32,000 nt of DNA, from assembly GCF_000406145.1 (NCBI RefSeq), contig NZ_CM001976.1, positions 717,260-749,259 of the forward strand, read 5' to 3'. A program made the position numbers and the translations under genes. Numbering within the stretch: the first letter of the stretch is position 1; every line of letters begins with the position of its first letter. The notes below the pieces were generated by a model, which saw only the letters and a program-made list of their open reading frames with translations, made no database searches and had not been told where the DNA came from. The DNA comes from Dickeya dadantii NCPPB 898. Lineage in GTDB: Bacteria; Pseudomonadota; Gammaproteobacteria; Enterobacterales; Enterobacteriaceae. Below are positions 17,160-31,293 of the stretch, in pieces.

Positions 17160-18080
17160 ATGACTCAACAAACCTTTACCAGGGAATTGTTCCACCCCCG
17201 CTACTGGCTGCTGTGGTTCGGCCTTGCCGTGCTGTTTCTGCTGGTGCAATTGCCTTATCCGCTGCTGATGCGGTTGGGCAGTTGGCTGGGGCGCAGCTCC
17301 CGTCATTTTCTCAAACGTCGGGTGAGCATTGCCCGCCGTAATCTGGAGCTCTGCTTTCCCGATATGCCGGCATCACAGCGCGAAGCGATGCTGAAGGCGA
17401 ATTTCGCCTCGCTGGGGATGGCGCTGATGGAAACCGGCATGGCCTGGTTCTGGTCGGACAGGCGGGTCAGAGCGTGGTTCGAGGTATCCGGCTTCGAGAA
17501 CCTTCAGCAGGCTGCGCGCGAACAGCGCGGCGTGATGGTGATTGGCATTCATTTTATGTCGCTGGAACTGGGCGGCCGCGCCATGGGGCTGTGCCAGCCG
17601 ATGATGGCGATGTACCGGCGGCATAACAATAAGTTGATGGAACTGGTGCAGACCTGGGGACGCTCTCGCTCCAACAAGGCGATGATTGACCGCAAGGATC
17701 TGCGCGGCATGGTGCAGGCGCTAAAGAGCGGTGAAGCGGTATGGTTTGCGCCCGATCAGGATTACGGCCCGAAAGGCAGCGTGTTCGCGCCTTTCTTTGC
17801 GGTCGAGCAGGCGGCGACGACCTGCGGCACGTTCACCATTCATCGTCTGGCCAAACCGGCGATGATCACCACGGTGCTGATTCGCAAGCCGAATCGGCAA
17901 GGGTATCAACTGGTGATTGAGCCGGAACTGGAGGACTACCCGAGTCAGGATCAGCAGCAGGCGGCGCACTACATGAACCGGGTGATTGAGCGCGAGATCC
18001 TGCGTGCGCCGGAACAGTATTTGTGGCTGCACCGTCGCTTCAAAACTCGCCCGTACGGCGAGGCGTCACTGTATCGCTAA
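17160..18080 (+). CDS. lpxP: Lipid A secondary acyltransferase, LpxL/LpxP family (closest by eye to palmitoleoyl-ACP LpxP)
   Basis: The protein is 306 aa from the ATG at 17160 (MTQQTFTRELFHPRYWLLWFGL...). HFMSLELGGRAMGLCQPMMAMYRRHNNKLMELVQTWGRSRSNKAMI and GEAVWFAPDQDYGPKGSVFAPFFAVEQAATT match my recollection of E. coli LpxP better than LpxL. It ends ...WLHRRFKTRPYGEASLYR. Paralogue assignment is not certain. Confidence 0.75.
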   Translation: MTQQTFTRELFHPRYWLLWFGLAVLFLLVQLPYPLLMRLGSWLGRSSRHFLKRRVSIARRNLELCFPDMPASQREAMLKANFASLGMALMETGMAWFWSDRRVRAWFEVSGFENLQQAAREQRGVMVIGIHFMSLELGGRAMGLCQPMMAMYRRHNNKLMELVQTWGRSRSNKAMIDRKDLRGMVQALKSGEAVWFAPDQDYGPKGSVFAPFFAVEQAATTCGTFTIHRLAKPAMITTVLIRKPNRQGYQLVIEPELEDYPSQDQQQAAHYMNRVIEREILRAPEQYLWLHRRFKTRPYGEASLYR

Positions 18081-18090
18081 GGCCGGGCGC

Positions 18091-18120
18091 AAAAAAAAGT
18101 GGCTGCCCGAAGGCAGCCAC
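18091..18120 (-). terminator. Strong rho-independent terminator oriented for the minus strand
   Basis: The minus strand reads GTGGCTGCC-ttcg-GGCAGCCAC followed by TTTTTTTT. On the plus strand the hairpin is followed by ATAAAAGG, with no U-tract, so it is at best a weak lpxP terminator. Confidence 0.8.
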
Positions 18121-18144
18121 ATAAAAGGAGAGAATGACTGATGA

Positions 18145-18231
18145 TTAACGAAACAGCGCGTAGGGATTAACACCGCGGTAGGTTTTGCCCAGCGCTTTTA
18201 GGATTTGAGTGATTTGACGGACAATACTCAT
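18145..18231 (-). CDS. Candidate small protein B (28 aa): MSIVRQITQILKALGKTYRGVNPYALFR
   Basis: The ATG at 18231 is preceded by GGGGGGAA with a 6-nt spacing and the TAA stop is at 18145-18147. It lies 24 nt upstream of the terminator hairpin. It is below the ORF-track size cut-off, and I do not recognise the family. Confidence 0.4.
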   Translation of the reverse strand: MSIVRQITQILKALGKTYRGVNPYALFR

Positions 18232-18258
18232 GATGTTCCCCCCATACGCATAAAAGAA

Positions 18259-18330
18259 TTAGTGGTTGAAAGTACCGAAGTTGATGGTGAAGTTTTCAAA
18301 CATGGCGATAATTTTGTGCAGCAGTTTCAT
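18259..18330 (-). CDS. Candidate small protein A (23 aa): MKLLHKIIAMFENFTINFGTFNH
   Basis: The ATG at 18330 is preceded by AGAGGAA with a 7-nt spacing and the TAA stop is at 18259-18261. It lies downstream of a TTGACC-N17-TATCTT promoter. I do not recognise the family. Confidence 0.4.
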   Translation of the reverse strand: MKLLHKIIAMFENFTINFGTFNH

Positions 18331-18361
18331 TGTCGTATTCCTCTATGTGATTCATTATTTC

Positions 18362-18377
18362 TGTGATGTTGTTCACG
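18362..18377. promoter_or_regulatory. Second, near-consensus CRP-like site
   Basis: TGTGA-TGTTGT-TCACG has 9 of 10 core positions. It is centred 57 bp from the perfect site and overlaps the predicted TSS and leader of the small-peptide unit. Confidence 0.5.
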
Positions 18378-18383
18378 GTTTTA

Positions 18384-18412
18384 AAGATACACCCTGCTCA
18401 GGGAGTGGTCAA
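18384..18412 (-). promoter_or_regulatory. Candidate sigma70 promoter for the small-peptide unit
   Basis: On the minus strand TTGACC (18412-18407) is followed by a 17-nt spacer and TATCTT (18389-18384). The predicted TSS is near 18377, giving a leader of about 47 nt. Confidence 0.5.
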
Positions 18413-18418
18413 CTTTTT

Positions 18419-18434
18419 TGTGATGCACATCACA
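18419..18434. promoter_or_regulatory. Consensus CRP (cAMP receptor protein) binding site
   Basis: TGTGA-TGCACA-TCACA is a perfect palindrome matching TGTGA-N6-TCACA. It is flanked by TTTT on one side and AAAA on the other, as in the extended consensus. Confidence 0.7.
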
Positions 18435-18806
18435 AAAATATGAACATGTAGTCTGCTCTTCCTGAACCACGGTTTTATTTTCTTTCATACTCAAGATGTT
18501 GCTGTTCGAACGGTGGCGAGTGCTCGTTGGCTGACGATTGCGGCAACGGCATGCGGCGTTTGGTTGGCGTTATTTTCAGCGCGACTACGGCGTGAAAGCA
18601 GGGAATAGCAGTTGAAATGGATGTCCCGAAGGCAGGATAATCTGCCGCCTCAACAACAACTGGCAGGATTCAGCCGCTTTGTAACGCAACGGTTAATCGT
18701 TTGCGTGTCAGGCTGGAGTGGGAAAACGGCAGGCAGTCCGGCGTCTGGCAAGGGCGTCGAATTATACCGTTTTTACTGAATACTGGTCAGGTGCCGGTTA
18801 CGGCGC

Positions 18807-24257: not shown

Positions 24258-26219
24258 TTAAGACGATGTGTGGCTCATGGCTTGTTTTTCTTCCAGCAGT
24301 TTCTCTACCACGCCAGGATCGGCGAGGGTGGAGATATCCCCAAGATTGCTGGTATCCCCGGCTGCAATCTTGCGCAGAATACGCCGCATGATTTTGCCGG
24401 ATCGGGTTTTCGGTAGCGCATCGGTCCAGTGCAGGATATCCGGGGTGGCGATGGGGCCAATCTCTTTGCGCACCCAGTTGCGCACCTCGGTATACAGCTC
24501 GCTGGTAGGCTCTTCGCCGTGATTCAGCGTGATGTAGGCATAGATCGCCTGCCCCTTGAGGCTGTGCGGAATGCCGACCACCGCCGCTTCGGCGATTTTC
24601 GGGTGTGAAACCAGCGCCGATTCGATTTCCGCGGTGCCGAGGCGATGACCGGAGACGTTCAGCACATCGTCCACGCGGCCGGTGATCCAGTAATAGCCGT
24701 CTTCGTCGCGCCGCGCGCCGTCGCCGCTGAAATACATGCCTTTGAAGGTGGAGAAATAGGTCTGCTCAAAGCGCTCATGGTCGCCAAACAGCGTACGCGC
24801 CTGACCGGGCCAGGAGTCGGTAATCACCAGGTTGCCTTCGCAGGCGCCGTCCTGCGGGTTGCCGAGGTTGTCCACCAGTGCCGGTTGCACCCCGAAAAAC
24901 GGCAGCGTCGCCGAACCCGGTTTGGCTTCGATGGCGCCGGGCAACGGCGTGATCATGAATCCCCCGGTTTCCGTCTGCCACCAGGTGTCGACGATCGGGC
25001 AGCGGCTATTGCCGATTTTTTTGAAGTACCATTCCCAGGCTTCCGGGTTGATGGGTTCCCCCACCGAGCCCATGATTTTGAGCGACTGGCGCGAGGTGCC
25101 TTCAATCGCCTTGTCGCCGTCCGCCATCAGCGCGCGAATGGCGGTGGGCGCGGTATACAGGATATTGACCTGATGCTTGTCCACCACTTGCCCCATACGG
25201 CTGGCGGTAGGCCAGTTGGGCACGCCTTCAAACATCAGCGTGATGGCGCCGCAGGCCAGCGGGCCGTACAACAGGTAACTATGACCGGTTACCCAGCCGA
25301 CGTCGGCGGTACACCAGTAAACGTCGCCGGGGTGGTAGTCGAACACGTATTTAAAGGTAGCGGCGGCGTAAACCAGATAACCGCCGGTGGTGTGCAACAC
25401 GCCTTTCGGTTTACCGGTGGAGCCGGAGGTATACAGAATAAATAGCGGATCTTCAGCGTTCATTTCTTCCGGCGGGCAATGATCGTCCACCTGGGCGATC
25501 AACTCGTGCCACCACAGATCCCGGCCGTCCTGCCAGTTGCCGGGCTTGCCGGTACGCTGGAAAACGATCACATGGTTGACGCTGGTGACCGCCGGGTTGC
25601 GCAGGGCTTCGTCAATGTTCTTTTTCAGCGGAATGGCCCGTCCGGCGCGAATGCCTTCATCGGCGGTGACCACCAGTTTGGCGCTGGAGTCGACGATGCG
25701 CCCGGCGATGGATTCCGGGGAGAATCCGCCGAAGATCACCGAATGCACGGCGCCGACGCGGGCGCAGGCCAGCATCGCCACGGCGGCTTCCGGCACCATC
25801 GGCATATAAATAGCGACCACATCGCCTTTACGGATGCCTTTAGATTTCAGCACGTTGGCGAAACGGCAAACCGCCTGATGCAGCTCGCGGTAGGTGACTT
25901 TTTTGCTTTCCCCGGCGTCGTCGCCTTCCCAGATGATCGCGGTTTGATCGCCCAGTGTGTCGAGATGGCGATCGAGGCAGTTGGCCGCTACATTTAATGT
26001 ACCGTCCTCGAACCAGCGGATACGGACATGGCCCGGGTCAAAAGAGGTGTTTTTGACCTGGTTATAGGGTTTGATCCAATCAACGATCTTGCCTTGTTCC
26101 CGCCAGAAGGCATCAGGATCCTGCACAGATTCCTGATACATCTTTTTATATTGTTCGGCGGTGATTAAGGCGTTTTCCGCAATGGTGGCGGGTATAGGGT
26201 GTTTATTATATTGGCTCAT
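24258..26219 (-). CDS. acs: Acetyl-CoA synthetase
   Basis: The 653-aa protein is collinear with E. coli Acs (MSQ..KH.IPA.IA...[29 protein letters not shown], and the C-terminal [17 protein letters not shown]). Confidence 0.97.
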
Positions 26220-26404: not shown

Positions 26405-26420
26405 TGAGATTTTGCTCACA
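26405..26420. promoter_or_regulatory. Second CRP-like site upstream of acs
   Basis: TGAGA-TTTTGC-TCACA is centred 106 bp (about 10 helical turns) from the first site. Confidence 0.3.
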
Positions 26421-30629: not shown

Positions 30630-31293
30630 AGCTCGTAGCGGACGGTATCCCGTCATTGTTAATGGCGGGATACCGCGCCGGCATATTGTTTCCGCTATTT
30701 GATCTAACGGGCGTAAGGTTATTTATTCCCGCAGGTTGGTCGCCAATAAAAATAAACTGACTAAACAACGGCGTGTGCGTGAATCAACGCGGCACGTTGG
30801 TTATTCTCAAGGCGTTTATTCATCCGAGATATTCCCGTCGCAATAAACCGCAGTCCGCTCTAATCATATGAATTATCTATATTAATATCGGTTCTGCACC
30901 TACGCTATCGGCTGTTCTTGCCCACCTTTCTACGATGTGTTTTAGCTCGGTTTTACCCACTAAAATTATAAGGTTTTTATTTTCCCTAGTGATAATGCTC
31001 ACAAGGTTATGGGCGTTTGCCTAATTTTCCGTGTCATAATTTCATCATATGGGAGACATTGCCTAATGACTAAACGAAATACAGCCACAATAATTAAAAT
31101 AAAACGTGGTTTTCTTTTAATTAATACATGATTTCTTTTTTGTGATGTTGATCTCTTCGTCATAGGGCGGCGGGAAAATATATCTGCTTTTCGCTTGATA
31201 CAGATTTACGCCATATAACCGTGCATTTTCCGATACACACAGTTTATCACTGCAAATTTTGTAAATGAGTTAACTATCCAGGCAGGTAACAAC

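Follow-up and report, generated by a model that had tools for sequence, protein, structure and literature searches.

A conserved unit encoding two small peptides was identified in a stretch of 32,000 nucleotides (nt) from Dickeya dadantii NCPPB 898, in the following called the window. The unit occupies positions 18434-18091 on the minus strand and contains two open reading frames (ORFs) for peptides of 23 and 28 amino acids (aa), i.e. two genes that are conserved yet absent from annotation. Taken together, our results make it probable that this unit, the counterpart of the Yersinia RNA Ysr206, is a distant two-gene relative of the dual-function RNA AzuCR of Escherichia coli and works by the mechanism outlined below. 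An earlier note on this DNA had read the region as a self-contained unit with two real small peptides; this core reading is borne out by the coding signature and the conservation of both ORFs.

Coding evidence, conservation and layout of the unit

ORF1 (18259-18330 including the stop codon, ATG at 18330) encodes the 23-aa peptide MKLLHKIIAMFENFTINFGTFNH, and ORF2 (18145-18231 including the stop codon, ATG at 18231) encodes the 28-aa peptide MSIVRQITQILKALGKTYRGVNPYALFR, which is cationic, amphipathic and AzuC-like. Both lie on the minus strand and are separated by a spacer of 27 nt (18232-18258), which harbors the second Shine-Dalgarno sequence (SD2), GGGGGG, at 18238-18243. In a six-frame test, the annotated frame was for each ORF the sole one free of stop codons and had the highest synonymous share of codon differences (0.43 for ORF1, 0.39 for ORF2). 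Replacements were conservative in these frames, with mean BLOSUM62 values of +0.83 (ORF1) and +0.91 (ORF2), whereas the other frames gave values of at most +0.20 that were mostly negative. For ORF1, the substitutions are distributed over the three codon positions as 13/5/28 and the ratio of nonsynonymous to synonymous divergence (dN/dS) is 0.1-0.3; between Y. massiliensis and Y. proxima, dN is 0 at a dS of 1.29. For ORF2, dN/dS is approximately 0.15-0.5 in most pairs; a few comparisons within Symbiopectobacterium, where dS is very low, give values near or above 1.

The length of the spacer is 25, 27, 28, 29 or 30 nt, and 225 nt in Symbiopectobacterium purcellii, while the lengths of the ORFs are fixed; the two frames thus slide relative to each other without any change in the length of either ORF. 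The only indels within the ORFs are one whole codon in each, and the stop codons change their identity but not their position. Both ORFs stand up to the check suggested by the earlier note: the frames are kept, substitutions are biased towards synonymous and conservative ones, and the spacer is the only place where indels of a length not divisible by three occur. Judged from these patterns, both ORFs are coding and under purifying selection. A 52-aa ORF on the plus strand was rejected as a further candidate; it is broken in Brenneria roseae and Y. pestis.

In order to determine the distribution of the unit, one genome per species was scanned with a degenerate pattern for the N-terminus of ORF1, which required MKxxx[KR]xxAMF[ED]. 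Of 37 loci found, 32 were real; these belong to Yersinia, Pectobacterium, Dickeya, Brenneria and Symbiopectobacterium, plus one record labelled Serratia marcescens. ORF1 has 23-24 aa in all 32 species genomes. ORF2 has 27-28 aa in each of the 23 loci outside Yersinia, where it accompanies ORF1 together with the same promoter, SD sequences and terminator. A whole architecture kept in 32 species genomes of five genera indicates that the unit is more than a chance arrangement. The taxonomic range is a lower bound, because the strict pattern renders more divergent relatives of ORF1 and all AzuC-type genes invisible, and because a metagenome scan with a pattern common to AzuC and ORF2 was saturated by E. 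coli: 112 of the 120 matches listed were E. coli azuC, and almost no new diversity was seen. In a multi-genus alignment the promoter, two binding sites for the regulator CRP (described below) and both ORFs are conserved; the spacer and the 3' untranslated region (UTR) diverge. The purine-rich SD of ORF1 is kept at the same distance in all genera despite altered surroundings, and the terminator hairpin is retained in the other genera with entirely different stem sequences.

Database searches returned little. A tblastn search of 72,556 plasmids gave no match, which argues against a mobile plasmid cassette. Scans of the peptides with Pfam and NCBIfam revealed no family; the Pfam library lacked PF28150, and E. 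coli AzuC was likewise unmatched there. At the gathering thresholds, Rfam detected nothing anywhere in the window. None of nine peptide variants was present in a collection of 15 billion proteins, which does contain AzuC, and a protein database search with a 51-aa Pectobacterium ORF extended out of frame yielded only one mis-extended "hypothetical protein".

Two of the loci deserve a separate description. In S. purcellii (locus L007, 5721-5909), a 189-bp element resembling a miniature inverted-repeat transposable element sits exactly between the SD2 region and the start of ORF2. The element carries terminal inverted repeats of 20 bp (GGCTTTGTTGAATAATTTAA / TTAAATTATTCAACAAAGCC), and its target duplication comprises 9 bp (AATAAGAAG); ORF2 is intact, and the original upstream arm of the RNA stem discussed below is displaced by about 200 nt. 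The record labelled Serratia marcescens (JADMXW010000003.1) carries the unit, ghxP and an antiporter gene of the Symbiopectobacterium type, an ORF2 that is one codon shorter, and AT-rich flanks downstream of the unit. Possible reasons are a wrong label, contamination of the assembly or a transfer of the region.

All elements listed in the earlier note (promoter, SD sequences, ORFs, spacer and terminator) were found on the minus strand where it had placed them. The predicted transcription unit is of the sigma-70 type and comprises about 288 nt, from 18378 to 18091. Its promoter consists of the -35 hexamer TTGACC (18407-18412), which is invariant in the multi-genus alignment and in Yersinia, and the -10 hexamer TATCTT (18384-18389; TATCTT, TATTCT or TAACTT in relatives) at a distance of 17 nt. 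The sequence proposed previously, TTGACC-17-TATCTT (18412-18384), is thus present and matches in 9 of 12 positions. The transcription start site (TSS) was assigned to 18378, the sixth nucleotide past the -10 hexamer, by homology: the position aligns with position 1 of the Rfam model for Ysr206, which was built from Yersinia RNA-seq data. The SD of ORF1, AGAGGAA (18338-18344), is located 7 nt ahead of the ATG at 18330. The unit ends with the intrinsic terminator GTGGCTGCC-ttcg-GGCAGCCAC-T8 (18091-18120), which has a 9-bp, G+C-rich stem (seven of the nine pairs are G-C), a UUCG loop and a U8 tail. Within the promoter spacer (18390-18407), an inverted repeat CCCTG-AG-CAGGG was flagged as terminator-like by a scan; the promoter spacers of other genera have different sequences, likewise with inverted repeats of 3-4 bp, and the repeat is probably due to chance in G+C-rich DNA.

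CRP sites, the link to Ysr206 and the probable relationship to AzuC

The consensus CRP site that had been noticed beside the unit is a perfect TGTGA-N6-TCACA at 18419-18434. This site (CRP site 1) has its centre at -48.5 with respect to the predicted TSS, and 6 nt separate it from the -35 hexamer downstream. A second site, which the earlier note had missed, is CGTGAACAACATCACA at 18362-18377 (CRP site 2); it matches in 9 of 10 positions, i.e. has one mismatch, and covers +2 to +17 with its centre at +9.5. Among the 12 tabulated ORF1-type promoters, CRP site 1 scores 10/10 in all cases, and the gap to the -35 hexamer is 6 nt (7 nt in Yersinia). In 11 of these loci, CRP site 2 follows at 57 bp (58 bp in Yersinia) from site 1; in the twelfth, Symbiopectobacterium endolongispinus, a half-site of site 2 is degenerate (TCATA). 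The whole window contains four CRP-like sites with at most one mismatch compared with 0.71 expected, and none of 100 shuffles reached this number.

The earlier note had not recognised the peptides as any named small-protein family, but named relatives exist: the RNA corresponds to Ysr206, and the peptides are similar to AzuC. The Rfam match in this region is RF02852, Ysr206, which begins at model position 1 and is below threshold (29.9 bits, E=2.9e-5). Relative to a gathering score of 124 bits, Dickeya undicola (30.3 bits) and Pectobacterium (40.2 bits) are also below, whereas the Yersinia loci found via ORF1 score 128-351 bits, with ORF1 at about +47; the latter loci are therefore Ysr206 itself. 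Ysr206 was described as a 310-nt "trans-encoded sRNA" (small RNA) located between rssB and YPK_2079 (Nuss et al. 2015, PMC4376681). According to this study, the transcript was detected in Yersinia by RNA-seq and validated by Northern blot, is essentially only detected in a crp mutant (log2 changes of +7.5 and +5.7), and has a promoter that CRP binds cooperatively, with a prediction of more than one site. The study listed the RNA as conserved solely in Y. pseudotuberculosis and Y. pestis (PMC4376681).

The unit and Ysr206 have a 5' module in common, which consists of a homologous promoter with both CRP sites, a 5' UTR of about 47 nt and the 23-aa ORF1 (MKLINKVIAMFEKMSVSFGTING in Yersinia, MKLLHKIIAMFENFTINFGTFNH in the window). 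In contrast, the 3' 190 nt of Ysr206 are structured and non-coding, whereas the same space is taken by ORF2 in Dickeya; the Yersinia 3' region contains no remnant of ORF2 and has no similarity to it. Moreover, Ysr206 was described as non-coding, while its Dickeya counterpart carries two ORFs. On the basis of the shared module, the unit is the Pectobacteriaceae counterpart of Ysr206. In the Ysr206 3' region (L029, 2039-2230; L032; L036), complementary motifs were observed: AATATTCTG near the stop codon of ORF1 and CAGAATATT/CTGAATATT before the terminator. Their presence in several Yersinia species suggests a long conserved hairpin in place of ORF2; the small ORFs of this 3' domain are not conserved between species. 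A literature search returned nothing linking AzuC with Yersinia or Ysr206, and no peptide reported in Ysr206.

AzuC was chosen as a candidate because it fits the description of a CRP-repressed short RNA with a 28-aa ORF, and every step of the comparison was then tested. Its sequence was confirmed from E. coli K-12 (MKLRKILKSMFNNYCKTFKDVPPGNMFR; the start of AzuR is at record position 1988001). AzuC is an amphipathic, membrane-bound protein that is repressed by CRP and that binds GlpD and stimulates it; AzuCR, the RNA encoding it, pairs with the cadA and galE mRNAs through the coding region (PMC8915982). The protein has been described as narrowly conserved. ORF2 has the same length as AzuC and has K16, T17, V21, P23, F27, R28 and the hydrophobic register in common with it; ORF1 agrees with AzuC in MKL, M10, F11, N13 and F18. 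Of the AzuC core SMF(E/N)NYCKTFKDVPPG(A/N)MF(R), ORF1 has AMFENFxxxF and ORF2 has GKTYRGVxPxA(L/I)FR; Cys15 and the PP pair are not kept. The significance of these agreements was assessed by shuffling AzuC residues 2-28 200,000 times with Met fixed and a single ungapped register. The p-value was 4.5e-5 for ORF2 of the window and about 1e-3 for ORF1, and the score of the ORF2 family was reached by none of the shuffles.

For a comparison at family level, AzuC orthologues were fetched via the neighbouring gene yecJ. AzuC was found beside yecJ in seven genera (Escherichia, Enterobacter, Kosakonia, Leclercia, Kluyvera, Shimwellia and Pluralibacter); the last six have variants such as MKQRLRNILKSMFENYCKTFKDVPPSNMF, which shift both toward ORF1 (MFEN) and toward ORF2 (A25). 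No AzuC-like ORF of 16-41 codons was detected within about 1 kb upstream of yecJ on the same strand in Salmonella, Citrobacter, Yokenella, Buttiauxella and Cedecea, so that the AzuC family is patchy even within Enterobacteriaceae. As a side observation, precomputed annotations of AzuC yecJ loci (L160, L161, L164, L166, L169) cite the Pfam entry PF28150 "AzuC". With hhalign, the ORF2 family aligns in register with columns 11-28 of the AzuC family (P=4.1e-5, probability 70%) and the ORF1 family with columns 1-18, also in register (P=8.3e-4, probability 24%). The addition of six divergent AzuC orthologues had improved these P-values from 1.9e-4 (ORF2) and 1.3e-3 (ORF1). The two peptides match complementary halves: the column scores of the N-terminal half of AzuC are 22.3 with ORF1 and 3.4 with ORF2, those of the C-terminal half 26.4 with ORF2 and -4.8 with ORF1. 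Among the chimeras, ORF1(1-15)+ORF2(16-28) was best, with a score of 49.4 against AzuC (z=5.8); none of 200,000 shuffles reached this value, although the breakpoint was optimised in every shuffle. At the DNA level this relationship is invisible, as a blastn search of 5,426 E. coli genomes gave no match.

The promoters point in the same direction. In E. coli and five further genera, the AzuC promoters consist of a strong CRP site, a gap of exactly 6 nt and TTGAnn, and the same holds for every tabulated Pectobacteriaceae promoter. E. coli azuC, which is the sole AzuC locus with an annotated TSS, has CRP site 1 centred at -48.5 as in the window. The distance from the start of this site to the ATG is 96-112 nt in AzuC loci and 100-106 nt in ORF1 units. 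At the sequence level, the unit thus has the promoter layout of a CRP-repressed gene, repression itself being known from the homologues AzuC and Ysr206. Given the site positions of -48.5 and +9.5 and the data on these homologues, CRP would by analogy act as a repressor of the unit.

With respect to the peptides themselves, the earlier note had proposed amphipathic helices arranged as tandem paralogues. The first proposal holds well for ORF2, whose hydrophobic moment (muH) is 0.74 in the window and 0.74-0.82 among relatives (residues 2-19, p ~0.001) at a charge of +5 to +7, but only modestly for ORF1, with a muH of 0.46 in the window (p ~0.03), 0.45-0.51 among relatives (p ~0.02-0.07) and a charge of +1 to +2. 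In this respect, ORF2 resembles the cationic amphipathic 27-29 aa helix of AzuC, and ORF1 does so weakly (23 aa, muH 0.46, charge +1). Mean hydrophobicity is 0.28 for ORF1 and 0.03 for ORF2 at charges of +1 and +5, and no hydrophobic transmembrane stretch is present; these polar or cationic peptides are, as had been argued, unlike membrane toxins of the Hok/TisB/Ibs type. The list of common hydrophobic positions (3, 4, 7, 10, 11, 14, 18 and 21) plus Asn22 is correct as well, but the case for paralogy drawn from it is weak: the permutation p-value is about 0.015, and hhalign detected no similarity between the ORF1 and ORF2 families. Although paralogy is not directly demonstrable, it is suggested by the fact that each ORF resembles a different half of AzuC.

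Proposed mechanism and competing explanations

The region around SD2 can form a long-range stem, which starts 9 nt past the stop codon of ORF1. Its 5' arm (18232-18250) is the end of the spacer including SD2 up to the AUG, and its 3' arm, GGUGUUAAUCCCUACGCGCU (18155-18174), corresponds to codons 20-26 of ORF2. In the window, the energy of this duplex of spacer and tail is -20 kcal/mol, compared with -11.4 +/- 3.1 kcal/mol for shuffled spacers. Across loci, values range from -14 to -24 kcal/mol and are better than those of shuffled spacers (p<=0.03) in 10 of 13 cases, and the pairing persists although the spacer sequence is otherwise unconserved. At codon 24, the first base of UAC (Tyr; Dickeya, Symbiopectobacterium and JADMXW010000003.1) is opposite a spacer A, and that of CAC (His; Pectobacterium and Brenneria roseae) opposite a spacer G. 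A stem sequestering the SD was not significant in six AzuC loci. The z-score for the minimum free energy of the whole transcript (-3.1) is dominated by the terminator and uninformative.

These observations can be combined into the following model. Judged from a site geometry identical to that of the homologues, cyclic AMP (cAMP) bound to CRP would shut the promoter via the sites at -48.5 and +9.5, so that the RNA would be made when cAMP is low, i.e. when glucose is plentiful or preferred sugars are present. The coding-type conservation suggests that the mRNA is translated from two SD-ATG starts. As indicated by the pairing energy and one covarying pair, SD2 would be held in the long-range stem with ORF2 codons 20-25, and translation of ORF2 would thus probably be coupled to ribosomes finishing ORF1. 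The 28-aa peptide P2 is predicted to form an amphipathic helix of positive charge whose tail contains Pro and ends in FR, and the 23-aa peptide P1 to be shorter and less amphipathic. By analogy with AzuC and GlpD, both would probably be located at the inner membrane, on its cytoplasmic side, and act there as modulators of a peripheral membrane enzyme. The RNA may also act by base pairing, as is hinted at by a synonymous divergence below that of the neighbouring gene: dS values based on the window sequence are 0.18-0.49 (ORF1) and 0.28-0.74 (ORF2), compared with 0.57-1.33 for ghxP in the same genome pairs. This low dS is a weak hint compatible with extra constraints on the RNA.

Several points weigh against this interpretation. 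For Dickeya and other Pectobacteriaceae, expression, translation and function are predictions from sequence and from the homologues. Brenneria izbisi and Pectobacterium B1J-3 have a weak SD2 stem or none, its support is a single covarying pair, and RNAalifold preferred another, invariant stem (codons 13-15 with 23-25) without covariation, which could offer the same 3' arm a different partner. The reduced dS rests on about 20 synonymous sites per ORF. As to AzuC, choosing this protein before testing amounts to an informal search over known small proteins, and amphipathic peptides can come to resemble each other by convergence. The curated AzuC model NF033642 (cutoff 30 bits), on which E. coli AzuC scores 75.9 bits, gave no match at E<=10 with four ORF1/ORF2 peptides, and our own hidden Markov model (HMM), built from nine AzuC orthologues, gave 0.9-7.7 bits, and for each of the two peptides 5-8 bits with an empirical p of ~0.001. 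Furthermore, the genomic context differs (yecJ in Enterobacteriaceae, rssB in Yersinia, ghxP in Dickeya), and so does CRP site 2, which is located at +9.5 in Dickeya and at about -18.5 in E. coli.

These reservations lead to the alternative of genuine peptides in a unit that is homologous to Ysr206 but unrelated to AzuC, the similarity being the result of convergent cationic peptides and a recurrent design of CRP-repressed promoters. The missing match to the curated model, the mere 5-8 bits of our own HMM, the hhalign probabilities of 70% and 24%, which are not decisive, the lack of synteny and the deviating position of CRP site 2 are in agreement with this explanation. We nevertheless regard it as rather unlikely, since two independent peptides are each in register with AzuC from fixed ends (ORF1 from Met1, ORF2 to the FR-stop) and cover complementary halves, and since the C-terminal KT[FY][KR]xVxPxA[LM]FR is no amphipathic-helix pattern. 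In addition, the fit improves with divergent AzuC orthologues, in which MFEN and A25 appear, and both groups have CRP site 1 at -48.5 with the same 6-nt gap. A second alternative, which is compatible with the two-peptide reading and does not exclude it, sees the transcript mainly or additionally as a base-pairing riboregulator like AzuCR, with the ORFs secondary or competing with pairing. In support of it, Ysr206 has been listed among the trans-acting sRNAs, the coding region of AzuCR pairs with cadA and galE, the dS of the ORFs is below that of ghxP in the same genome pairs, codons 12-20 of ORF2 are nearly invariant at the nucleotide level, and a Rho-independent terminator with a U8 tail is a typical handle for Hfq or ProQ. 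However, no target is known or predicted, and dS is noisy in ORFs of 23-28 codons and could be lowered by constraints on the start region, codon bias or the SD2 stem. Moreover, conservation is limited to the ORFs and the promoter, while the spacer and the 3' UTR diverge freely, and Yersinia has an unrelated sequence instead of ORF2, which leaves no common non-coding seed outside ORF1. We therefore consider a riboregulator of this kind a minority option, though one to be taken seriously.

The remaining two explanations deny the peptides the role proposed here. A purely non-coding sRNA with two incidental ORFs would be in line with the annotation of Ysr206 as an sRNA, the shortness of the ORFs and the absence of the peptides from protein databases, but is made very improbable by the six-frame test, the codon-position bias, the conservative replacements, the fixed ORF lengths next to a spacer of variable length, the retained SDs, and stop codons that change identity but not position. 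The small peptides and the strong terminator might also call to mind a type I toxin-antitoxin or membrane-toxin cassette, or a leader-peptide attenuator. Such a function is scarcely credible: the peptides are polar or cationic and lack a hydrophobic transmembrane stretch, the antisense ORF and region are not conserved, no antisense promoter has been proposed, and lpxP as the next gene downstream is convergent, so that a target for attenuation is lacking.

Genomic surroundings and comparison with known systems

The gene lpxP (17160-18080, plus strand; NF005952, 593 bits) adjoins the unit in convergent orientation. On the other flank, and divergent, lies a gene of the Xan_ur_permease family, here called ghxP-like, followed by a Na+/H+ antiporter gene, actP and acs. 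The flanking proteins are 93-98% identical to their Dickeya oryzae and D. undicola counterparts. A likely ghxP promoter, TTGAAA-18-GATAAT (window positions 18612-18641, plus strand), is kept in Dickeya, Pectobacterium, Brenneria and Symbiopectobacterium. About 55 nt downstream of it, a conserved block TAATCGTTTGCGT is found within ACGCAACGGTTAATCGTTTGCGT (18694-18706, plus strand), which we take to resemble a PurR-type half operator. The promoter and this block imply that the purine permease gene has a 5' leader of about 240 nt. A promoter-like site on the minus strand (18790-18761) was discarded; it is situated in a Dickeya-specific stretch and is not conserved. The other one-mismatch CRP-like sites of the window are located at 26405-26420 and 30988-31003. 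The former (TGAGATTTTGCTCACA) is about 190 bp upstream of the acs start at 26219, a position consistent with the CRP-activated acs promoter of E. coli.

If our interpretation is correct, soft-rot pathogens of plants (Dickeya, Pectobacterium, Brenneria), insect symbionts (Symbiopectobacterium) and Yersinia, with Y. pestis among them, possess a related small-protein module under the control of CRP. The Northern-validated Ysr206, which is among the most strongly CRP-repressed transcripts, would then be a small-protein mRNA or a dual-function RNA. In the searchable literature, Ysr206 is connected neither with a peptide nor with AzuC. One-gene and two-gene versions would offer a natural comparison for dissecting the parts of a 28-aa regulator, and two conserved genes missed by every annotation and by a collection of 15 billion sequences would exemplify a blind spot for ORFs of less than 30 codons.

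One may go a step further and regard the AzuC gene and the ORF1-ORF2 pair as two states of one evolving module, an idea that we consider on balance doubtful. In this case, AzuC would be an in-register recombinant of the N-terminal half of ORF1, along with the promoter and 5' UTR, and the C-terminal half of ORF2, along with the terminator; alternatively, the pair would have arisen by duplication of AzuC, with complementary halves retained in the two copies. In both cases, the helix that binds the membrane and the KT[FY][KR]xVxPxx[LM]FR tail would be separable functional modules, and Pectobacteriaceae would make two peptides coupled by an SD-sequestering stem, whereas Yersinia would keep the first only, within an RNA that has been regarded as non-coding.

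CRP-linked dual-function RNAs that are tied to carbon-source sensing and also encode one peptide of 15-43 aa are known from Spot 42/SpfP and SgrS/SgrT. These differ from the unit in that there is no sequence similarity, well-defined base-pairing seeds lie outside the ORF, and a single peptide is made. Among the closest known systems is AzuC/AzuCR (b4663/b4434; NF033642; PF28150), and the peptides described here are probably a distant variant of the AzuC module, as suggested by sequence comparison, and not members of AzuC. We did not file them as AzuC because the curated model is not reached, two genes are present, and the position of CRP site 2 and the genomic context deviate. In detail, the Dickeya unit has two ORFs and the AzuC locus one; the second CRP site of E. 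coli lies between the -35 and -10 hexamers, that of Dickeya at +9.5; the stem sequestering SD2 in Dickeya is missing from six AzuC loci; and the neighbours are ghxP/lpxP in Dickeya but yecJ/yecR in E. coli. On the other hand, ORF2 and AzuC (muH 0.60, charge +6) are both cationic amphipathic peptides of 27-29 aa, and ORF2 resembles AzuC in the C-terminal KT[FY][KR]xVxPxx[LM]FR motif, ORF1 in the N-terminal MKLxKIxxxMFxN[FY]xxxF pattern. Both RNAs are short and of monocistron size, with a strong terminator right after the ORF. Their sigma-70 promoters are alike in that one CRP site has its centre at -48.5 and is separated by 6 nt from the -35 hexamer, and another overlies the core promoter.

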